From Nanobdellota archaeon (GTDB lineage: Archaea; Nanobdellota; Nanobdellia; Woesearchaeales; GW2011-AR9), in assembly GCA_038046465.1 (NCBI GenBank), contig JBBSWB010000050.1:1-27116 (forward strand): a stretch of DNA of 27,116 nucleotides, written 5' to 3'. Positions 11,014-27,116 of the stretch are shown in pieces (position 1 is the first letter of the stretch; each line of letters starts with the position of its first letter). Both the position numbers and the translations under genes were made by a program. The notes under the pieces were generated by a model. The model was not told the DNA's origin. It worked only from the letters and a program-made list of their open reading frames with translations, and ran no database searches.

Positions 11014-11358
11014 TTATCTTCTTCTCTTCTTAGCAGCTTTTCGTTTAGCTGGTTTGCGTTTAGCAGCTTTTCTTTTAGCGGATTTTTTCTTAACTGCTTT
11101 TTTCTTTGCAGCTTTTCTTGAACCTGCTTTTCTGCCACGAGCCATTTTAGCTCTAGCTACATTTCCTTGTTTATCAACAAAGTAAAGGTATCCATTTTCT
11201 TTCTTAACGCCAGCTTTGGCTACTACTTCTGTTCTAGTTTTGCCTTTCTTTCGGCCTGCTCGACTCATTACTGCTCGAGCTACATTTCCGTGTTTATCAA
11301 CAAAGTAAAGGTAACCTTTTACTTTTTTAACACCGGTTCTTGCTACAACTTGTGCCAT
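11014..11358 (-). CDS. Small basic protein with two 41-aa repeats plus a Lys/Ala/Arg-rich tail; candidate nucleic-acid-binding or chromatin protein
   Basis: A GAGGTGG SD lies upstream of the ATG. VVARTGVKKVKGYLYFVDKHGNVARAVMSR is repeated as VVAKAGVKKENGYLYFVDKQGNVARAKMAR. The tail is SRKAAKKKAVKKKSAKRKAAKRKPAKRKAAKKRRR. Function is inferred from composition only. Confidence 0.6.
   Translation of the reverse strand: MAQVVARTGVKKVKGYLYFVDKHGNVARAVMSRAGRKKGKTRTEVVAKAGVKKENGYLYFVDKQGNVARAKMARGRKAGSRKAAKKKAVKKKSAKRKAAKRKPAKRKAAKKRRR
11104..11349 (-). repeat. Intragenic 123-nt (41-codon) tandem duplication
   Basis: The 35-nt core gctacatttccNtgtttatcaacaaagtaaaggta at 11156-11190 recurs at 11279-11313 with one mismatch. 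Confidence 0.85.
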
Positions 11359-15717: not shown

Positions 15718-18700
15718 ATGGAGCAAACACAAGACATTATTACTGAAAAAAGAGGACTGGAAATATCCCGATATTTTACTAAAGAAGGCACTAACCCTTT
15801 TGATTTATGTATTTATGAAGAAAGATCCTCCGTTATTAAAAATCCTGACGGCTCAATTATTTTTCAGATGGACAACGTGGAAGTTCCACGTACGTGGAGT
15901 CAAGTGGCTACGGATATTCTTGCCCAAAAATATTTCCGAAAAACGGGCGTTCCTTTAAAAAATCGCAGCGGCGAACCTTTGCTTGATGAAAATGGAAAAA
16001 TAATTCTGGGAAGTGAGACCAGCATAAAACAAGTCGCCCATAGGATTGCCGGCTGTTGGCGATACTGGGGTGAAAAACATAATTATTTTGCTTCCAAACG
16101 GGACGCAGATATTTTTTATGATGAAATGGTCTTTATGATCATCAACCAATATGCTGCTCCCAATAGCCCCCAATGGTTTACTACCGGACTGAATTGGGCT
16201 TATGGGCATACCGGATTAGCACAAGGACATAGTTACATAAATCCGGTAACTAAGCAATTAGAATATTCTCAAGATGCTTATACGCGCTCCCAGCCCCATG
16301 CTTGTTTTATTCAACATATTGACGACGATTTAGTAAAAGAAGGGGGAATATTTAGTTTATTAGTAAGAGAAGCACGCGTGTTTAAATATGGTGGTGGAAC
16401 GGGAAGTAATTTCTCGCAATTACGGGGAAAAGGAGAAAATCTTTCTGGCGGAGGAGCCAGTTCCGGATTAATGAGCTTTCTTAAAATATTTGATGCTGCT
16501 GCCGGAAGCGTTAAGTCGGGAGGAACAACCAGAAGAGCGGCTAAGATGGTCTGCTTAGATCTTGATCACCCCGAAATTGAAGAATTTATTTGGTGGAAAG
16601 TAAAAGAAGAAGAAAAAGTTGCCGGCTTAGTTGCTGGAAGTAAAATTCTTAAGGAAAAAATTACTAACTTAATTGAAGCAGCTAAGAATAAAGAAAATCC
16701 TCTGGAAGATAAAGAAGTGCAAAGGACTTTGCGCGAAGCAGCTGCAGGAAAAATACCGCTTAATTATCTGGTTCGAGCTTTAGATTTAACCAAACAAGGA
16801 CGCACCTTGCCTTTACGCGAATTTGATACTCATTACGAATCAGAAGCCTATGTAACTGTATCTGGACAGAATAGCAATAATTCGGTTCGCATTCCTAATG
16901 CTTTTTTTGAATGTTTAAACGAAAAAAAGGATTGGAAATTAAAAGCTAGAAGAACTGGAGAAACCCTCAAAGTGATTCCGGCAGAAAAATTATGGAATGA
17001 TATTGGTTATTGTGCTTGGGCTTCTGCTGATCCAGGAGTGCAGTATGATACGACCATCAATGAATGGCATACCTGCCCAGCTGGAGGAAGAATCAACAGC
17101 AGTAATCCTTGCAGCGAATATATGTTTCTCGACGATACCGCTTGTAATTTAGCCTCTCTTAACTTAATTAAGTTTTATGATGAAAATAAAGAAAGATTTG
17201 ATGTGCAGGGATACCGGCAGGCACTCCGGTTGTGGACCATTGCTTTAGAGATTTCCGTGCTGATGGCTCATTTCCCGTCTGAAGAAATTGCCCGAAAGAG
17301 TTACGAGTACCGAACTTTAGGATTAGGATTTGCCAATATCGGAGCTTTGCTGATGATCCAAGGCGTGCCTTATGATAGTGATAAAGGGAGAACAATTTCG
17401 GCAGCCTTAGCCGCAATAATGACTGGTGAGAGTTATGCTACTTCCGCAGAGATGGCTGGTATTCTGGGTACGTTTGAACGATTTGAAGAAAATAAAGAAG
17501 CTATGCTGCGAGTAATCAGAAATCATCGCCGCGCCGCATATGGTGAAAAAAATTATGAAACCCTGCAAGTAAAACCTATCGCTCTTGACCAATATGTTTG
17601 TCCAGTAGAATTATTAGAAGCTGCGCGCAATGCGTGGGATAGAGCTTTGCGATTAGGTGAACAGAAAGGGTTTAGAAATGCTCAGGTAACTGTTATTGCT
17701 CCAACTGGAACCATCGGTTTAGTAATGGATTGCGACACTACTGGCATTGAACCTGATTATGCTTTAGTAAAACACAAAAAGCTGGCCGGCGGTGGATTTT
17801 TTAAAATTGTAAACCAATCTGTACCCAAATCCTTGAAACGATTGGGTTATGATAAAGAACAAATAAAAGAAATCATTATTTATTGTTTAGGGCATGGTTC
17901 TTTGGAAAAATGCCCAACCATCAATCCGGAATCACTGTTAAATAAAGGCCTGCGTTTAGAAGAAATAAAAAGAATTGATGCCGAACTAAAAAATGCCGTC
18001 GATATTCGCTATCCTTTTAACCGCTGGACTTTAGGTGAAGAAACTTACTGTCGGATCATGCAGGGAAAATCAGTAGATCTGCTTACCGCTTTAGGATATT
18101 CTTCCGCAGAGATAGACTTAGCCAATGAATATGTCTGCGGCACTAATACGATAGAAGGTGCTCCTCATTTAAAAGACGAACATTATCCGGTATTTGACTG
18201 TGCCAATAATTGCGGTAAAAAAGGAAAAAGATTTATCCATCCTTATGGACACTTAAAGATGGTCGCCGCAGTGCAGCCTTTTATTTCTGGCGCTATTTCT
18301 AAAACCGTTAACATGCCTCGGGAATGGAACATTGAACAAATTAAAAAAGTTTATTACGATGCCTGGACGATGATGATCAAAGGAGTTGCTTTATACCGGG
18401 ACGGATGTAAATTATCACAACCCTTGACTTCAAATTTCCAGGAACATTCTTGCTTAACCAAAATATTGCAGGAAAAAGAAGAAAAAAAGGAAACGGAAAA
18501 AACTGTTAAAGAAATTATTAGGAAAAAAGTAAAAGTAGGAGCAAAAACCTTAACTCTTTCTGCAAATCTAAATTCGGGAAAAGTTACGGACATCTCCTAT
18601 AACATTAATGACCTATCTTTAACTCAGCAATTGATGATGAATGCGTTAGTAAACACGATTAGTTTAGGTTTAGGACAAGGTCTTAAACCCGGAGTGATTG

Positions 18701-18966
18701 CTAACAACCTGAAGCTAGATTTAAATTTAGAAGGGCATCCGCTGATCAGCGAATTGCAATCCTTTTTACAGGAGTTTGAAGAAGAGAGCTCTTATGATTC
18801 TTCGAATTTGCCTAAATCTGTTGTAATCAGAGATGCCGAAATTAAAAATCCTGAAACCAAAACCCTTCTGCAAAAAAAATGTTCTTCTTGCGGTGCTGCC
18901 CAACTAAGGCAAAACGGCACCTGCATGCTCTGTGAAGTGTGCGGAGAAACTACCGGGTGCAGTTAA
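15718..18966 (+). CDS. nrdJ: Class II (adenosylcobalamin-dependent) ribonucleotide reductase, long form with Cys-rich C-terminal tail, no ATP-cone
   Basis: 1082 aa. The N-terminus GLEISRYFTKEG...VPRTWSQVATDILAQKYF is typical of long NrdJ. The active-site loop is SNPCSEYMFLDDTACNLASLNL. The C-terminus is CSSCGAAQLRQNGTCMLCEVCGETTGCS. Confidence 0.9.
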   Translation: MEQTQDIITEKRGLEISRYFTKEGTNPFDLCIYEERSSVIKNPDGSIIFQMDNVEVPRTWSQVATDILAQKYFRKTGVPLKNRSGEPLLDENGKIILGSETSIKQVAHRIAGCWRYWGEKHNYFASKRDADIFYDEMVFMIINQYAAPNSPQWFTTGLNWAYGHTGLAQGHSYINPVTKQLEYSQDAYTRSQPHACFIQHIDDDLVKEGGIFSLLVREARVFKYGGGTGSNFSQLRGKGENLSGGGASSGLMSFLKIFDAAAGSVKSGGTTRRAAKMVCLDLDHPEIEEFIWWKVKEEEKVAGLVAGSKILKEKITNLIEAAKNKENPLEDKEVQRTLREAAAGKIPLNYLVRALDLTKQGRTLPLREFDTHYESEAYVTVSGQNSNNSVRIPNAFFECLNEKKDWKLKARRTGETLKVIPAEKLWNDIGYCAWASADPGVQYDTTINEWHTCPAGGRINSSNPCSEYMFLDDTACNLASLNLIKFYDENKERFDVQGYRQALRLWTIALEISVLMAHFPSEEIARKSYEYRTLGLGFANIGALLMIQGVPYDSDKGRTISAALAAIMTGESYATSAEMAGILGTFERFEENKEAMLRVIRNHRRAAYGEKNYETLQVKPIALDQYVCPVELLEAARNAWDRALRLGEQKGFRNAQVTVIAPTGTIGLVMDCDTTGIEPDYALVKHKKLAGGGFFKIVNQSVPKSLKRLGYDKEQIKEIIIYCLGHGSLEKCPTINPESLLNKGLRLEEIKRIDAELKNAVDIRYPFNRWTLGEETYCRIMQGKSVDLLTALGYSSAEIDLANEYVCGTNTIEGAPHLKDEHYPVFDCANNCGKKGKRFIHPYGHLKMVAAVQPFISGAISKTVNMPREWNIEQIKKVYYDAWTMMIKGVALYRDGCKLSQPLTSNFQEHSCLTKILQEKEEKKETEKTVKEIIRKKVKVGAKTLTLSANLNSGKVTDISYNINDLSLTQQLMMNALVNTISLGLGQGLKPGVIANNLKLDLNLEGHPLISELQSFLQEFEEESSYDSSNLPKSVVIRDAEIKNPETKTLLQKKCSSCGAAQLRQNGTCMLCEVCGETTGCS

Positions 18967-19089
18967 GAGTTTTAGCATAAATTCAACTAAAAAACCTAAA
19001 TTTTTTATATCAGACTAGTTTTAAACATATTTATAAGGCCCTTGGTAAGCTTATTTAGGAGCTTTTTATGGGCCTATTTGATATCAAAA

Positions 19090-21189
19090 ATGACTGAAGA
19101 AAAAGAAAAAACACCCGTATCTGAACCGACTGAAATTAAAAAAATAATCAAACGAGATGAAAAAATAGTCGACTTTGATGTAGAAAAAATTAAAGAAGCA
19201 ATTTCTCAGGCAATAGAATCAGTTGATGAACCAAACCCCAATCTTGCTCATTCGTTAACCCAAGAAGTGGTTAAGCTGTTAAACAAAAATTTTAGCAAGG
19301 CTTCTCCTCCAACCGTTGATGACGTACAAGATTTAGTTGAAAAAGTGTTAATAGAAGAAGGGCAGGCGCAAACTGCTAAAGCATACATCCTTTACCGCCA
19401 CAAAAAAGATGAAGAAAGAGAAAGGAGAGCTTTGATTCTAGGCAAGGAAGAAGCAGGAGAAAATTTAATTTTTTCTAATGAAGCGTTACGAATCCTAAAA
19501 GAGCGTTACTTACTTAAAAATTCGGAAGGGGAAATCATAGAAACACCTAAAGGGATGTTACAACGAGTTGCTAAGAATATTGCTAAAGCAGATGCTATTT
19601 ATGGGGCAGCTAAAGAAGACGTAAAAAAAACTGAAGAAACCTTTTTTAATTTGATGACAGAATTAAAATTCCTGCCTAACTCACCAACATTGATGAATGC
19701 AGGAACAAATAACCAGCAATTGGGTTCCTGTTTTGTTCTGCCGGTAGAAGACGATATGGAAGGTATTTTTAATTCATTGAAACATGCTGCTTTAATCCAT
19801 CAACGGGGCAGTGGAACGGGTTTTTCATTTTCACGATTAAGACCAAAAGGAGATTTTGTCGGTAAAAACGCTGGCGTGGCTGCCGGCCCGGTAGCTTTCT
19901 TGAAAGTTTATGATAAAGCATTGGAAACGATTAAACAAGGAGGGGTTCGTCCCGGTGCAAATATGGCCGTATTGCGGGTGGACCATCCCGACATCATTAG
20001 ATTCATCGAGGCTAAACGTAACCAGCCTTCACTTAAAAATTTTAATCTTTCGGTTGCTGTGACGGATCGATTTATGAAAGCAGTTGAAGCAGATCGGGAA
20101 TATTTTGTAGTAAATCCAAAATCAGACAAATTTGTCGGTAAATTAAGAGCAAAAGATGTCTTTGCTATGATTACTCAAAATGCCTGGAAAACTGGGGATC
20201 CCGGATTGATTTTTATCGACGAGATTAATCGAAAACATCCGGTTAAAAACTTAGGGGAAATTGAAACAACTAACCAATGCGGCGAAGCACCCCTTCTTCC
20301 TTATGAAGGAATCATCTTGGGATCGCTTAACTTAAATAAATTTATCAAATATGATTTGGAGTCTAAACCGGAAGATATTGCTTGGGAAGATTTGCGGGAA
20401 GGAGTACGGGTTGCGGTTCATTTTTTGGATAATGTTATTGATATGAATTCTTATCCTTCTAAAAAAATTGAGGAACAGACTAAAAACACCCGAAAATTTG
20501 GATTGGGAATAATGGGCTTTGCAGACCTGTTAATTAAACTAAAAATAAAATATGATTCTGAAGAAGGTTTAGTTATCGCCGAAAAATTAGTTTCATTTAT
20601 CAAAGAATCAGCATACCAAAAATCATTTGAACTTGCTGAAAAAAGAGGGGTATTTCCGGCCTGGAAAGAATCAGAGCATGAGAAAGCAGGTAAAAAAATG
20701 CGTAATGCTACTTGCCTGTCCATTTCCCCCACTGGAACTATCAGCATTTTAGCGGGAGCTTCTTCTGGCTGTGAACCTCTGTTTGCTATCTCTTATCAAA
20801 GATCGTTGTTGGGGGATAAAGAATTAGTTTACCTTAATGCTGAATTTGAAAAAGTAGCTAAAGAAAAAGGATTTTATTCTTCAGAATTAATTAGGAATAT
20901 TGCTCATGTAGGCAGCGTCCAAGAATTTAAAGATATCCCTAAATCGATTAGAGACGTATTTGTTACCGCTCAAGAAATTAGCCCAGAATGGCACGTAAAA
21001 ATGCAATCTACTTTGCAGAAGCACGTTGATAATTCCATTTCTAAAACCATTAATTTTCCGCATACTGCAGCTATCAAAGATGTTGAAGACGCTTACTTGT
21101 ACGCTTGGAAAGCTAAATGTAAAGGCATCACTATTTACCGTGATGGAAGCTATGAAGACCAAGTAATCAATATTGGCGAGAATAATTAA
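19090..21189 (+). CDS. nrdJ: Class II ribonucleotide reductase, short form with N-terminal ATP-cone, no C-terminal Cys tail
   Basis: ATP-cone pattern IIKRDEKIVDFDVEKIKEAI. Also LPNSPTLMNAG, SCFVLPVEDDM, the active-site TNQCGE and PTGTISILAGASSGCEP. The protein ends ...ITIYRDGSYEDQVINIGENN with no cysteines. ATG 19090 is preferred over the track start at TTG 19042. Confidence 0.9.
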   Translation: MTEEKEKTPVSEPTEIKKIIKRDEKIVDFDVEKIKEAISQAIESVDEPNPNLAHSLTQEVVKLLNKNFSKASPPTVDDVQDLVEKVLIEEGQAQTAKAYILYRHKKDEERERRALILGKEEAGENLIFSNEALRILKERYLLKNSEGEIIETPKGMLQRVAKNIAKADAIYGAAKEDVKKTEETFFNLMTELKFLPNSPTLMNAGTNNQQLGSCFVLPVEDDMEGIFNSLKHAALIHQRGSGTGFSFSRLRPKGDFVGKNAGVAAGPVAFLKVYDKALETIKQGGVRPGANMAVLRVDHPDIIRFIEAKRNQPSLKNFNLSVAVTDRFMKAVEADREYFVVNPKSDKFVGKLRAKDVFAMITQNAWKTGDPGLIFIDEINRKHPVKNLGEIETTNQCGEAPLLPYEGIILGSLNLNKFIKYDLESKPEDIAWEDLREGVRVAVHFLDNVIDMNSYPSKKIEEQTKNTRKFGLGIMGFADLLIKLKIKYDSEEGLVIAEKLVSFIKESAYQKSFELAEKRGVFPAWKESEHEKAGKKMRNATCLSISPTGTISILAGASSGCEPLFAISYQRSLLGDKELVYLNAEFEKVAKEKGFYSSELIRNIAHVGSVQEFKDIPKSIRDVFVTAQEISPEWHVKMQSTLQKHVDNSISKTINFPHTAAIKDVEDAYLYAWKAKCKGITIYRDGSYEDQVINIGENN

Positions 21190-21330: not shown

Positions 21331-21954
21331 ATGAAAGCTGGACAAGTTCATGTTTATACTGGGGATGGTAAAGGAAAAACTACTGCTGCTTTAGGCTTGG
21401 CCTTAAGAGCAGTCGGGCAGGGCTTGAAAGTAGTGATGATCCAGTTTATGAAAGGGGGCAAATATACTGGAGAATATGTTGCTGCTAACAATTATCTTCC
21501 TAATTTTAAAATCTTACAGTTTGGCCGCCCTTGCATCAAGCAGCCAAAACAGCTTAAATTAAGCGGATTTAATCCGGGGCTAACTCAACCAGAACAATTT
21601 AATTCTGTGCACGAAGATATCGATTGCGGCGATTGTAAATATTGTTTTCTTAATGACGACATTCAAAGAGATTATGTTGAAGAAGGTTTTAATAAAGCCT
21701 CAGAATTAATCTTGTCGGGCAAATATGATTTGGTGATATTAGATGAAATTAATTTAAGTATGCACCTCGGATTTATTAATCCCAAATTAGTGCTTAACTT
21801 GATTACCAACAAGCCGGAACTGGTTGAAATTATTCTTACTGGAAGAAATGCGCCTGCAGAAATACTTGCTGCTGCCGATTTGATTACTGAAATGAAAATG
21901 AGTCGGCATTATTATAATACGGGCACTAGCGCCAGAAGAGGAGTTGAGTATTAA
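21331..21954 (+). CDS. cobO: ATP:cob(I)alamin adenosyltransferase (CobA/CobO/BtuR family) with a Cys-containing insertion
   Basis: VHVYTGDGKGKTTAALGLALRAVGQGLKVVMIQFMKG, VILDEINL and IILTGRNAP match the BtuR/CobO pattern. An insertion of about 35 aa relative to E. coli BtuR carries C68, C99, C102 and C105. Confidence 0.85.
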   Translation: MKAGQVHVYTGDGKGKTTAALGLALRAVGQGLKVVMIQFMKGGKYTGEYVAANNYLPNFKILQFGRPCIKQPKQLKLSGFNPGLTQPEQFNSVHEDIDCGDCKYCFLNDDIQRDYVEEGFNKASELILSGKYDLVILDEINLSMHLGFINPKLVLNLITNKPELVEIILTGRNAPAEILAAADLITEMKMSRHYYNTGTSARRGVEY

Positions 21955-23702: not shown

Positions 23703-26120
23703 ATGCTTCTTAAACAATTAAAGCTGGAAAATATCCGTTCCTACCTCAAGGAAGAGATCAATTTTACGGAAGGATCAACTTTACTTTCTGGCGACATCGG
23801 TTCAGGAAAATCCACCATCTTGCTGGCAATAGAATTTGCGTTCTTTGGAACCTCCCGGCCAGATCTTCCCGCAGAAGCTTTATTACGCAAAGGAGCAAGA
23901 GAAGGCTCGGTAGAATTATCTTTACAAATACAGAATCAAGAAATAGTCATTAAAAGGAAACTCAAAAAAGAAAAAGATGTGATTAAGCAGATGCCTGGTG
24001 TGATCATAATTAATCAGGTTCAAAAAGAGCTTATGCCTGTAGAACTTAAAGCAGAAATTATTTCTTTACTTAAATACCCAGAAGAACTGGCAAATAAAAA
24101 TAAAAATTATATTTATCGATACACAGTTTACACTCCGCAGGAAGAGATGAAGCAGATCTTACAGGAGGATGCTGAAGAAAGATTAGACGTGCTTAGAAAA
24201 ATATTCAATATTGATAAATATAAAATTATCCGTGAAAATTTACAGATTTATCTTAAAAAAACTCGCACCGATATTGCTATTCTTAAAACCAAAACCGAAC
24301 CCTTGGAAGATCAAAAAAGGCAGCGCCAGGAATTGATTGCCGAGAAAGAAACGTTAAAGAAAGCTGCTGAAGAATTAATTCCCCGACAAAACATACTGCT
24401 AGAGCAATTACAGCAGCAAAATAAAGAACTGGGAGAACTAGAATTACAGCAGAAAGAATTTTTAGATTTAAAACAAGAATATAAAACCGATCAAGCTTTA
24501 TTTTATGAAAAAAAAGAACAATACTTGCAGCTTAACCAAAAAAAAGAAAGATTAAAGTTAGAGATTACCCAACTATCCTTGCCCGAAAACCAGATAAATA
24601 AAACGTTAGAGCAGACTAAAGCAGAATTAAAAGAAAAAGAACTGCAAAAAAATTATCTGTTAACTAAAAAAACTATTTTTCAAGAAAAATTAAGCCAACT
24701 TAAAGAAAATCTTAAAAAAACCCAATTCGAGCTTAACGAAATAATTAGGCAAACTGATAAAATTAAAGAAAAAGAAAGGTTACAGGAAGAATTAAGTTTA
24801 GCAATCGCCAATAAAAAAAATTTACAGCAGAACCTAAAAGATACTGAAGAGCAGATTCAGGAAATTCTAAAAATAATAACTACTACTGAAACGGTTCTCT
24901 TTCAATCTAAAGAACTACAGGAAAAAATTGGTTCTTTAAACACCTGCCCAACTTGCCTGCAGGAAGTTTCTTCTGATCATAAACATAAAATTACCAGCCA
25001 AGAACAGGATAAAATTGTGCAAGCAGAACAAAGCTTGCTGCTGGTACAGGAAAGAAAAAAAGCAAAGCTGCAGCAGAAAGAATTGCTTCAAAAAGAACTT
25101 GAACAGATTGTATCTAAAGAGAATCAGTTGATTAAGATTAATTTTGAACTTTATCAACTGCAAGAAAAAAAAGAGCTCGGCCGGCAGAAAGAGGAGCAAC
25201 TTAATTTAGGGTTAATAGAGATAGAAAGTTTAAAACAAAAAATTGAAGAAATTGATCGAGAAAACAATCTGGAACGTTTAGATAAAGAAATCAGCCAAAT
25301 CCAGGAATATTTACATTTACTTTCCAAAAAACAAATTTTAGAAAGAAATGTCTTAGAATTAAATCAGCAAATAAATCAAAATGAAGAACAGAAAGTTAAA
25401 TTCATTCAAAAAATTATGGCTTTGGAAGAAAAATTAGCCAATAAAAAAGATTTAAGCTTATTGATGGCAGAAAAAAAGAGGTACTTGGCTAGAACTACTA
25501 TGGAAGAGAAAGAGCTTGCTCTCAGCATAGCCAGACTGCAAACTCAAATCAATAGTATCAATAAATATCAGGAACTGATTGAAAAAAGCCTTGATCAACT
25601 TAATCTGGAAAAGAATAAACTAATCTTATTAAAAGAAACTTACCATTGGCTGGAAGAATACCTTCTTAAGCTAACTTATACTATAGAAAAACAAGTTATG
25701 GCCAATATTCACAGCCATTTCAATCAAATTTTTCAGGATTGGTTTTCAGTGCTCATCGATGATGAAAATGTTTCTTCCCGGATTGATGAATCTTTTACCC
25801 CAATAATTGAACAGAACGGGTATGATATCTCTTTCCCGAACCTGAGCGGAGGGGAAAAAACCTCGGCCGCACTAGCTTACCGCTTAGCCTTAAACCGGGC
25901 CATAAACGATGTAGTTAATGAGATAAATACGAAAGATTTATTAATTTTGGACGAACCTACCGATGGATTTAGCACAGAACAACTAGATAAAGTAAGAGAT
26001 ATATTAGAAAAGCTTAAATTGAAACAGACAATTATAGTTTCACATGAGTCAAAAATTGAAAGTTTTGTGGAAAAGGTGATTCGGATAAACAAAATCGGCC
26101 ATGTTAGCAGTGTTATATAA
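23703..26120 (+). CDS. rad50: Rad50 DNA double-strand-break repair ATPase
   Basis: Walker A is GDIGSGKSTILLAIEFAFFG. A long coiled coil carries a central CPTC zinc hook (LNTCPTCLQEV). The signature motif is LSGGEKTSAALAYRLAL, Walker B is LLILDEPTDGF, and the H-loop is IIVSHES. Confidence 0.9.
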   Translation: MLLKQLKLENIRSYLKEEINFTEGSTLLSGDIGSGKSTILLAIEFAFFGTSRPDLPAEALLRKGAREGSVELSLQIQNQEIVIKRKLKKEKDVIKQMPGVIIINQVQKELMPVELKAEIISLLKYPEELANKNKNYIYRYTVYTPQEEMKQILQEDAEERLDVLRKIFNIDKYKIIRENLQIYLKKTRTDIAILKTKTEPLEDQKRQRQELIAEKETLKKAAEELIPRQNILLEQLQQQNKELGELELQQKEFLDLKQEYKTDQALFYEKKEQYLQLNQKKERLKLEITQLSLPENQINKTLEQTKAELKEKELQKNYLLTKKTIFQEKLSQLKENLKKTQFELNEIIRQTDKIKEKERLQEELSLAIANKKNLQQNLKDTEEQIQEILKIITTTETVLFQSKELQEKIGSLNTCPTCLQEVSSDHKHKITSQEQDKIVQAEQSLLLVQERKKAKLQQKELLQKELEQIVSKENQLIKINFELYQLQEKKELGRQKEEQLNLGLIEIESLKQKIEEIDRENNLERLDKEISQIQEYLHLLSKKQILERNVLELNQQINQNEEQKVKFIQKIMALEEKLANKKDLSLLMAEKKRYLARTTMEEKELALSIARLQTQINSINKYQELIEKSLDQLNLEKNKLILLKETYHWLEEYLLKLTYTIEKQVMANIHSHFNQIFQDWFSVLIDDENVSSRIDESFTPIIEQNGYDISFPNLSGGEKTSAALAYRLALNRAINDVVNEINTKDLLILDEPTDGFSTEQLDKVRDILEKLKLKQTIIVSHESKIESFVEKVIRINKIGHVSSVI

Positions 26121-26157
26121 AAAAAATAACAAAACCATAAAACCCAATTATGTCATA

Positions 26158-26303
26158 AAAGTGCGGGAAAGCGCCTGACCACGGACTGAAGTCCATGGCT
26201 TGAACAGCGCTTTCTAATCCCCACACTTTGTGACGCCGGAGAAGCAGGAGTTGAAAAGAGCATTCATAACCGGACTAAAGTTCGGCTCTTTCTGCTTCTC
26301 CGT
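26158..26303. ncRNA. Candidate structured RNA (or palindromic DNA element): two tandem ~70-nt extended hairpins, class unknown
   Basis: This is a GC-rich island in an AT-rich spacer. Unit 1: 26158-26167 pairs with 26220-26229, 26168-26174 with 26207-26213, and the apical hairpin is 26179-26198. Unit 2: 26237-26247 pairs with 26292-26302 (11/11), 26255-26261 with 26285-26291, and the apical hairpin is 26270-26285. The units share the apical core GGACTnAAGTyC. Differences between the helices are compensated. The strand is not resolved. Confidence 0.5.
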
Positions 26304-26339
26304 GCGTAACACCCAAGAAAGCTAAAGGCTTTACCTAAA

Positions 26340-27116
26340 GTGAAAGAAAAGACTTTACCAGAAACAAACGAAAAATCTGTTAAACCATTAGAAGAAATAA
26401 TTGACAACAAAAGACCTTTTTCTTGTTTAAGCTTGCGGGACAGTCCTCTTTTTCAAAGAATAGTGCAAGAAGATTTAGAAAAAATGAAATCTAAAATCGC
26501 TCTTGACCTTCATGATCCAGTGTGGAATATTCTTCTCGTCCAATCAATACAAGGGCATGCACAGAATGGACACGGTCTTTTTAATACCTACAACTGCAAA
26601 TATCCACAAGCGACTATCCCTGATGTGATTGCTGCTGCGGGCATGGATATTAACACAATCAAAGCAGCGCGCCAGGAATTGATTGATGAAGTATATGCCT
26701 GGGTTAATCTTGCTCTAGATAATCATCACACCCATAATAACAAAGAGAATAATAATGCTCCTTTAACCCAAGACAGATTACAATTAAACCATAAACCCCT
26801 GCTCAGAATAAAATTCATTGAAGAGTACCTTGTTGATCCAGTATTTATTCTTAAAGGGATTGTTTTGGCTGGGCACATGGATAATTACCAATCCCGAATG
26901 GAAACTATAAATCATTATAAGACCACTATTAAAGGCAACCCTTTAGAAATTGGGGGTGGCGAAACTTATTTAGTGGATTTAGAAATGCTGGCTAAAGCAG
27001 GGTTAGACCAAGTTAGTTTAGCTAATATTGAACACGATGATCAAAAAATCGATTATTTGCGAAGATTGGGAGTAATTGTCGACGGTACTTGCAGTAGCAA
27101 TAGTAATATCGAAAGT
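26340..27116 (+). CDS. Hypothetical protein, 5' part only (ORF runs off the window end)
   Basis: This ORF is not in the supplied track because it has no stop. The frame is open from 26310 to 27116. The first plausible start is GTG 26340 and the next is ATG 26484. The translation begins VKEKTLPETNEKSVKPLEEIIDNKRPFSCL... and continues ...GHAQNGHGLFNTYNCKYPQATIPDVIAAAGMD... No family recognised. Confidence 0.55.
   Translation, partial: MKEKTLPETNEKSVKPLEEIIDNKRPFSCLSLRDSPLFQRIVQEDLEKMKSKIALDLHDPVWNILLVQSIQGHAQNGHGLFNTYNCKYPQATIPDVIAAAGMDINTIKAARQELIDEVYAWVNLALDNHHTHNNKENNNAPLTQDRLQLNHKPLLRIKFIEEYLVDPVFILKGIVLAGHMDNYQSRMETINHYKTTIKGNPLEIGGGETYLVDLEMLAKAGLDQVSLANIEHDDQKIDYLRRLGVIVDGTCSSNSNIES

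Follow-up and report, generated by a model that had tools for sequence, protein, structure and literature searches.

A two-hairpin repeat beside a rad50-like gene of a DPANN archaeon is almost certainly a mobile, non-autonomous element

Between a rad50-like gene and the next open reading frame (ORF) of a groundwater archaeon from the Hainich, whose record is labelled Nanoarchaeota (DPANN), lie two adjacent hairpins, and the question they raise is whether they form an RNA or regulatory element resident at this locus or something that arrived from elsewhere. The stretch of DNA analyzed, here called the window, is the 27,116 nt from position 1 of contig JBBSWB010000050.1 (assembly GCA_038046465.1). 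An initial annotation, made from the letters of the window alone, preferred a novel structured RNA or cis-regulator kept at the locus, with a small insertion resembling a MITE (a miniature transposable element with inverted repeats) as its fallback. The preferred reading did not survive comparison with other genomes: the hairpins are missing in relatives, are dispersed in multiple copies, and are decaying in the window. Together, the two hairpins are almost certainly a single mobile, non-autonomous repeat. The family to which it belongs seems to have been unnamed and undescribed: among the top results of a full-text literature search that combined DPANN with MITEs or TnpB, no paper dealt with an element of this kind.

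A 154-nt insertion containing two hairpins

Homologs of the 419-amino-acid ORF downstream of the hairpins are 87%, 78%, and 71% identical to it, and their contigs were compared with the window. The gene order TK-like (minus strand), rad50-like (plus), 419-amino-acid ORF (plus), and DUF1385 (minus) is kept in the fetched loci L003, L004/L005, and L006. The spacer between the rad50-like gene and the ORF is 62 nt in L003 and 65 nt in L004/L005, and the two genes overlap by 14 nt in L006; in the window, the spacer is 219 nt. Alignment of the window with its relatives gave a single clean extra block of 154 nt (26152-26305). The empty site of L003 reads ...ccaaattat/gtaacaccaaag..., with GTAA retained (attat/gtaacacc), and the filled site of the window reads ...cccaattat, then the element from GTCATAAAAGTGCGGG to CTGCTTCTCCGTGC, then gtaacacccaag.... 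This GTAA (26306-26309), which on the minus strand reads TTAC, adjoins the element at its unit 2 end and belongs to the host site, outside the insertion. A second pair of filled and empty sites, L138 and L145, with flanks 77% identical, has TA(G) past the element end as flank DNA.

No target duplication is present in either comparison (window with L003/L004; L138 with L145). At most 1 to 2 nt, the G and T common to element and flank, are not assignable to one or the other, and the element can be written in the register 26152-26305, 26153-26306, or 26154-26307. The initial annotation had pointed to GTGCG at both borders; this is not a target duplication, and of its MITE-like fallback the mobile insertion stands while the proposed borders do not. 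It had also turned to homologous loci as a check on the helices, and three relatives lack the element in this spacer. The insertion lies 32 nt past the rad50-like gene and 34 nt ahead of the next ORF, both on the same strand; it widened the distance from stop codon to GTG start from about 62 nt to 219 nt and left 34 nt of native upstream sequence in place. The window copy was inserted after the split from the relative with the 87%-identical downstream ORF.

Within the block, the island of higher GC content (0.47-0.53, vs 0.29-0.35 in the flanks and 0.358 in the entire window) begins 38 nt past the rad50-like stop codon (26120), as originally described, and the helices of both units are located where the initial annotation had placed them. 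Unit 1 begins 6 nt from one terminus of the element, and 3 nt separate the end of unit 2 from the opposite terminus. The unit 1 module (26152-26234) is a three-tier hairpin between GTCAT and GTGAC. Its outer helix, P1 (26158-26229), pairs AAAGTGCGGG (26158-26167) with CCCACACTTT (26220-26229) at nine of ten positions, the mismatch being C26164/A26223. The inner helix, annotated as 26168-26174 with 26207-26213, corresponds to P2 (26168-26213), in which AAAGCGCC (26168-26175) faces AGCGCTTT (26206-26213); the bulge CTAATC (26214-26219) lies on its 3' side. The apical hairpin P3 (26179-26198) reads CCACGGAC-TGAA-GTCCATGG and is followed by the conserved bulge CTTGAAC. The linker GTGACGC (26230-26236) leads to unit 2 (26237-26302), where the outer helix (26237-26247 with 26292-26302) has 11 of 11 pairs, the inner helix joins 26255-26261 to 26285-26291, and the apical hairpin spans 26270-26285; base 26285 had been counted in both of the latter.

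The region 26150-26315 folds with -65.8 kcal/mol on the plus strand and -73.3 kcal/mol on the minus strand, compared with means of -43 and -47 for shuffled controls. This corresponds to z = -5.89 on each strand, with 0 of 200 shuffles equaling the native fold, and bears out the stability on which the initial annotation had staked its structure. The two units do not share their architecture, as it had supposed. Unit 2 is the mirror image of unit 1, because the bulges are on the 3' side in unit 1 (CTTGAACA and CTAATC) and on the 5' side in unit 2 (GAGTTGA and ATTCATAA). The stems of the two modules are unrelated in sequence, and the modules are each self-folding. When unit 1 is cast as a covariance model, here R1, it matches unit 2 of other copies solely on the opposite strand, with 24 to 30 bits. 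On the window, unit 1 is its sole match (82.3 bits, E = 3.6e-21). The unit 2 of the window is homologous to the unit 2 of other subfamilies, with the conserved ATTCAT and CTTTCTG in common.

A dispersed family with fixed ends and covarying helices

To find further copies, as the initial annotation had advised, genomes were scanned with a degenerate pattern common to both units, using one genome per species in a collection that excluded the window's metagenome-assembled genome (MAG), and metagenome contigs were scanned with the left-end motif. The genome scan returned clusters of contigs in several DPANN MAGs together with scattered bacterial matches that resemble chance, and the metagenome scan returned at least 120 loci. 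Together they yielded at least about 64 real copies, of which 52 distinct ones among the matches listed have both ends defined. This favors the MITE-like side of that proposal and counts against a single syntenic RNA gene. Local BLAST recovered full-length copies in L058, L035, L037, L039, L029, L055 (twice), L091, and L056 that are 80 to 86% identical to the window copy, and the flanks of family copies are mutually unrelated. One MAG carries at least seven copies that are 93 to 99% identical to one another. Most full-length copies score 80 to 112 bits with R1, and a few degraded ones 49 to 73 bits; R1 has no match in the three empty-site relatives (L003, L004, and L006). Viral carriage was considered and dropped: two scans of viral contigs gave nothing or chance matches, none of them matched by R1.

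Family members range from about 76 to 480 nt. In the orientation of the window plus strand, they consist of GTCAT(G/A), unit 1, GTGAC A, zero to two optional hairpins, unit 2, and a terminal ...ATG, ...GTG, or ...GCG. Unit 1 measures 83 to 87 nt and has P1 formed by AAAGTGCGGG and CCCGCACTTT, P2 by AAAGCGYCTC and GAGRCGCTTT, an 8-bp apical stem P3 with a TAAA loop, and the 3'-side bulges CTTGAAA and CTAATC. Unit 2 measures 55 to 130 nt; its foot stem varies, ATTCAT bulges out on the 5' side, and the apical stem carries a loop of the TAAA type. Unit 1 is combined with at least four kinds of unit 2. The linker is GTGAC in most of 46 copies, with the variants GAGAC, GCGAC, GTAAC, and AGGAC. Deletion derivatives that keep both termini are found at different loci (L099/L202, L129, L110, and L040), and in L085, one copy sits exactly between the end of an older copy and its GTAA.

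Several further observations concern individual copies. In L055 (5534-5872), a foreign non-coding element of about 190 nt (TCTCATTTTCCACCAGTGG...TTTTCTTTGAT) sits exactly in the apical loop of unit 1, resembling the small repeats that target the palindromes of palindrome-associated transposable elements (PATEs) in Haloquadratum. The apical loop is flipped to TTTA or TTTTAA, with the stem unchanged, in L085 (6299-6385), L189 (1781-1859), and L125 (2466-2544), as in a flip-flop-like loop inversion. Two loci from an Aenigmatarchaeota MAG, L074 (6883-6929) and L078 (3287-3333), hold hairpin repeats of like design (AAAGAGC...GTGGACTAAAGTCCAC...GCTCTTT) in both orientations, with the TAAA loop staying on one strand; they are not matched by R1 and may represent a sister family. 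Good copies also occur in L011 and L069, from a MAG named 'archaeon nzgw59', where they share a 319-nt repeat around the element and where a sigma-70 factor and a prolipoprotein diacylglyceryl transferase of bacterial type stand beside an archaeal-type Endo_dU. This mixture could reflect mis-binning, gene transfer, or a family that crosses domains.

All 52 of the listed copies with defined ends are intergenic, and none lies within a long ORF. In seven of them (for example L017, L032, L076, L093, L110, L187, and L190), the reading frame of the upstream gene continues into the element and terminates there at TGA (GTCATGA) or TAA (GTCATAA), as it should if the gene had used the TAA of a GTAA target as its stop codon; insertion at such a site therefore costs only one extra codon. 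Neighbors on the unit 2 side are convergent more often than not (30 vs 15).

The right end of these 52 copies, located with a pattern that demanded GTA past it, is followed by GTAA in 33, GTAT in 15 (nearly all of one subfamily), GTAG in 3, and GTAC in 1. On the minus strand, the target motif is accordingly TTAC in 33/52, ATAC in 15/52, CTAC in 3/52, and GTAC in 1/52. TTAC is also the target of IS608, which inserts 3' of it. Beyond the GTAN motif the flanking sequence is random, and on the left flank 40 of 50 copies have an A at -2. All 46 aligned copies have GTCA as their left end, a motif that the left-end search pattern itself demanded; on the minus strand it reads TGAC and is similar to the target TTAC. 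In the window, this GTCA (26152-26155) pairs with the TGAC of the GTGAC linker (26231-26234), and across the family the terminal pairs 1-91, 2-90, 3-89, and 4-88 are kept in 39, 46, 45, and 35 of 46 copies, respectively. On the minus strand, the GTCA immediately 5' of the unit 1 hairpin is thus the partner of the TGAC end in 35 to 46 of 46 copies. At the unit 2 end, the left end on that strand, there is no comparable guide position, and nothing was seen to covary with the choice of TTAC or ATAC. Only one end is bordered by a fixed tetranucleotide outside the element, and the empty site has this motif as well.

Terminal inverted repeats are absent: the left end GTCATAAAAGTGCGG does not match the reverse complement of the right end GCACGGAGAAGCAG, and some subfamilies have merely a weak CAT-K-AAA resemblance between their ends. 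A MITE of the type with terminal inverted repeats was rejected after both such repeats and a target site duplication had been tested for and found absent. Classical MITEs, such as the SM elements of Sulfolobus, resemble the present family in being about 150 nt long, non-coding, intergenic, and high in copy number, but differ in their terminal inverted repeats and in the target duplications made by DDE transposases.

Pairing in the hairpins is conserved at the level of the family. In an alignment of unit 1 from 46 family sequences, 96% of the cells are paired, versus 33 to 52% with slid partners; ten pairs have changed on both sides, with 116 double-change cells, a result attained by 0 of 500 shuffles. 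Pairs 20-66 and 23-63 of P2 covary, six of the eight P3 pairs have compensatory changes, and in the apical stem of unit 2 all eight pairs are compensated. Outside the terminal helix, the pairs are of a DNA-like kind (1228 Watson-Crick, 13 G-T, and 24 A-C), and an attempt to assign a strand from the wobble pairs was uninformative. Helix pairing is under selection in the family, and such selection would act on transposition rather than on host function.

The selection on structure proposed in the initial annotation is thus real for the repeat family, as seen in the covariation of 46 copies, and not at this locus. The evidence it had offered, GCGC in one unit against GAGC in the other, compares two different modules whose positions are not orthologous, and the C/A and G-U pairs that had made the strand ambiguous are point mutations relative to the family consensus. 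Four substitutions separate the window copy from that consensus: A26195 in P3, A26206 in P2, and A26223 in P1, each a G>A change that breaks a C-G pair, and T26282 (C>T) in unit 2. These are decay, not covariation. With 82 bits, the window copy is among the lowest-scoring of the intact copies, the best of which reach 105 to 112 bits. It is a decaying passenger, and nothing suggests a host function.

Route of mobility and alternative readings

PATEs were defined in haloarchaea as elements that have no inverted terminal repeats, carry palindromes near their termini, make no target duplication, and are too short to encode a transposase; a targeting sequence of 4 to 6 bp, core deletions, and other repeats nested in the palindromes complete the description (PMC3119063). 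Transposons of the IS200/IS605 type are excised as single strands and inserted downstream of a transposon-adjacent motif (TAM), without target duplication and with a scarless donor joint. The TAM lies beside the left end, a similar transposon-encoded motif (TEM) is found at the right end, stem-loops at both ends are needed, and PATEs are mobilized in trans (PMC10055086). IS200/IS605 is the most widespread insertion sequence (IS) family of archaea (PMC13343696). We consider the element of the window to be probably, though far from surely, a PATE-like non-autonomous transposon that uses a route of the IS200/IS605 type, because it has the descriptive features of PATEs and because its features match the 'peel-and-paste' mechanism; at 154 nt, it is too short for a transposase.

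The top strand would be the minus strand of the window, where the order is TTAC / hairpin of the left end (unit 2) - GTCAC - hairpin of the right end (unit 1) ...ATGAC /. TTAC would then be the TAM and the terminal TGAC the TEM. We infer that during replication this strand would fold into its two hairpins, and that a Y1 HUH transposase supplied in trans would recognize both, cut after TTAC and after TGAC, and allow the resulting single-stranded circle to be pasted 3' of another TTAC.

The likeness to the PATEs of haloarchaea and Geobacillus, which are non-coding derivatives of IS200/IS605 (PMC3119063, PMC10055086), extends to a length too short for a protein gene, ends without terminal inverted repeats, insertion without target duplication, a palindrome close to each terminus, a brief fixed oligonucleotide that serves for targeting on one side, diverse subfamilies, derivatives that remain dispersed despite deletion of the core, small repeats nested in palindromes, and copies that far outnumber any autonomous partner. 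The differences are the DPANN hosts, the mirrored end modules, the three-tier palindromes of 65 to 85 nt with conserved bulges, and the outcome that the 1.4 Mb of fetched loci yielded no transposon of the IS605 type with such ends. IS608 of Helicobacter pylori likewise has a hairpin at each end, an end tetranucleotide resembling its target (here TGAC vs TTAC), and four bases 5' of the right-end hairpin (here GTCA) that can pair with the end motif. Unlike the present family, it has 22-nt hairpins in direct orientation, a spacer of about 19 nt with a left guide, non-canonical guide pairing, and both tnpA and tnpB.

A number of observations weigh against an IS200/IS605-type PATE. Neither tnpA nor tnpB was found beside any copy by motif regular expressions or phmmer in six-frame translations of the 1.4 Mb of fetched loci; the phmmer queries were IS608 TnpA and ISDra2 TnpB, and the positive control worked. 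No autonomous partner emerged when the loci were compared all against all by BLAST for long repeats in common, nor when interrupted copies were inspected. Pfam searches of 20 neighboring ORFs identified ordinary host genes, and a database search with IS608 TnpA returned bacterial relatives only, which is uninformative for DPANN. The palindromes are 65 to 85 nt long, three-tiered, and conserved in their bulges, versus about 20 to 30 nt for IS608-type hairpins. The left-end hairpin begins 2 to 3 nt from the cut site, and there is therefore no room for a 5' guide in the style of IS608. The modules are mirror images except in their loops, whereas the ends of IS608 are direct copies, and the GT common to both junctions also fits a 2-bp crossover. 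Finally, the 31-kb contig of the window contains a single copy, and its MAG lay outside the genome collection scanned.

Could the hairpins also be read as RNA? A PATE might in addition carry a guide-RNA scaffold resembling an omega-RNA, read out of the unit 1 end into the flank on behalf of a TnpB/IscB-type nuclease encoded elsewhere, and this we regard as unlikely. The complexity of the hairpins far exceeds the needs of a transposase binding site, their single-stranded bulges (CTTGAA, ATTCAT, and CTAATC) are conserved, and helices have been inserted in particular lineages as in structured RNAs. PATEs 'often encode omega-RNAs' that act in trans (PMC10055086), and many subfamilies carry, by eye, a TATA-like ATTAAATA box on the minus strand just inside the TTAC end. 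Omega-RNAs of TnpB and IscB are placed at the end of IS200/IS605 elements or PATEs as a multi-hairpin scaffold abutting the guide flank, a resemblance of architecture only. Against this, the TATA-like box is absent from the subfamily of the window, wobble pairs are rare and show no strand bias, unlike in most RNAs, no nuclease gene was found near any copy in the fetched loci, and no Rfam family, the IscB-associated RNA included, matches the window or 113 kb of related loci. That the family goes beyond a passive PATE at all, whether as a trans-acting guide-RNA scaffold or as the substrate of an unrecognized HUH-type or other enzyme in DPANN archaea, is similarly doubtful. If true, it would explain why neither TnpA nor TnpB is seen near any of the at least about 64 copies, and it would mean a new end architecture, with mirror-image modules and one central GTCA guide in common, for single-strand transposons of genome-reduced symbionts. 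A resident structured non-coding RNA, or a cis-regulatory element of the rad50-like gene or the downstream ORF, can scarcely be credited any longer. The fold is very stable on both strands, and the element lies close to two genes of the same strand. Yet it is missing from this spacer in three relatives, the same sequence stands beside dozens of unrelated genes, and the copy itself has four pair-breaking substitutions and a score of 82 bits against 105 to 112 for the best. The failure of the initial annotation to match a tRNA, signal recognition particle RNA, RNase P RNA, or C/D or H/ACA guide was borne out: Rfam at the gathering score matched neither the window nor any of 16 related loci, only noise (such as Vault and BTnc060) far below the cut-offs came up when 26050-26450 was scanned permissively in E-value mode, and ARAGORN found no tRNA. 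Other identities were tried and dropped. A K-turn around the unit 1 apical hairpin (CUGA with CUU-GA) is a plain helix plus a one-sided bulge in the family, where other copies have CTCA in place of CTGA and a matching TGAG opposite. Likewise, a reading as an archaeal H/ACA guide, with ACA after the minus-strand stems, was abandoned once family members had been compared. An integron attC site was rejected in the absence of a cassette array and of the RYYYAAC/GTTRRRY core.

The remaining alternatives retain mobility and replace the route. Repetitive extragenic palindromes (REPs), their bacterial interspersed mosaic elements (BIMEs), and their hairpin-forming doublets (REPINs) are spread and maintained by a single-copy domesticated Y1 transposase, the REP-associated tyrosine transposase (RAYT), and systems of this kind have been described mainly from bacteria. 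They share with the present family GC-rich intergenic palindromes, inverted modules, a tetranucleotide at the foot, and a Y1 HUH enzyme presumably acting in trans. It fits such an origin that unit 2 resembles unit 1 on the opposite strand only, that the 52 copies among the matches listed are strictly intergenic, above the genome in GC content, and often at the 3' ends of genes, that a conserved tetranucleotide (GTCA, GTGA, or GTAA) stands by each hairpin foot, and that the fetched loci contain no partner of the IS type. Still, we think it quite improbable: REPs are 20 to 40 nt and the halves of a REPIN pair with each other, whereas the modules here measure 65 to 85 nt, fold on themselves, and form an element with defined ends and clean presence or absence; in addition, no RAYT-like or Y1 gene was found in any fetched flank. 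Very improbable, in our judgment, is that a site-specific recombinase, be it a serine recombinase like that of IS607 or an enzyme of the IS110 type, moves the element in double-stranded form, with crossover at a GT core of both junctions. GT does stand at each junction and a single time in the empty site (attat-GT-aacacc vs attat-GT-CAT...GC-GT-aacacc), and there are no terminal inverted repeats. However, the next two bases past GT (A, then A or T) are also fixed and derive from the flank, giving a one-sided motif of 4 nt rather than a 2-nt core, and the long helices have evolved in a compensatory manner, which suggests that a folded single strand is what the enzyme recognizes. An IS110 bridge RNA was rejected, as copies 95 to 99% identical share no long specific target of the kind it would impose.

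Neighboring genes and meaning of the family

The gene upstream of the element, outside it and part of its context, encodes a Rad50/SMC-like ATPase (23703-26120, plus strand); no mre11 gene is adjacent to it here. The 419-amino-acid ORF on the other side starts with GTG and leaves the window (26340-27116, plus strand; in full at L001, 12638-13894). All relatives have it in this place behind the rad50-like gene, with an overlap of the rad50 stop in L006. Homologs occur in DPANN and in bacteria, and there is no sequence match to Pfam, NCBIfam, or the Protein Data Bank (PDB). An AlphaFold model of the 87%-identical homolog reached a pLDDT of 88.8 and a pTM of 0.88, and Foldseek against the PDB gave no match (best E = 0.97). 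The protein may be an unrecognized partner of Rad50 with a new fold.

Elsewhere in the window, a small minus-strand ORF (11014-11358) contains both a repeat of 15-nt period (11030-11149; seven units listed, six of them in tandem) and a 94-nt internal duplication with 81% identity (11138-11354), and its product is probably a lysine- and alanine-rich repeat protein. Two adjacent genes resembling the large subunit of ribonucleotide reductase (15718-18966 and 19042-21189) are followed by one of the CobA/CobO/BtuR type (21331-21954).

A GC-rich island of stable hairpins in an AT-rich archaeal genome is usually read as a structural RNA, and the result obtained here averts a false call of that kind. 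The family raises the question of where its mobilizing enzyme is encoded. It supplies a covariance model that is ready for use in masking, a range of natural hairpin variants with which to study the reading of structure by single-strand transposases, and a marker of recent insertion activity in the very small genomes of DPANN archaea.

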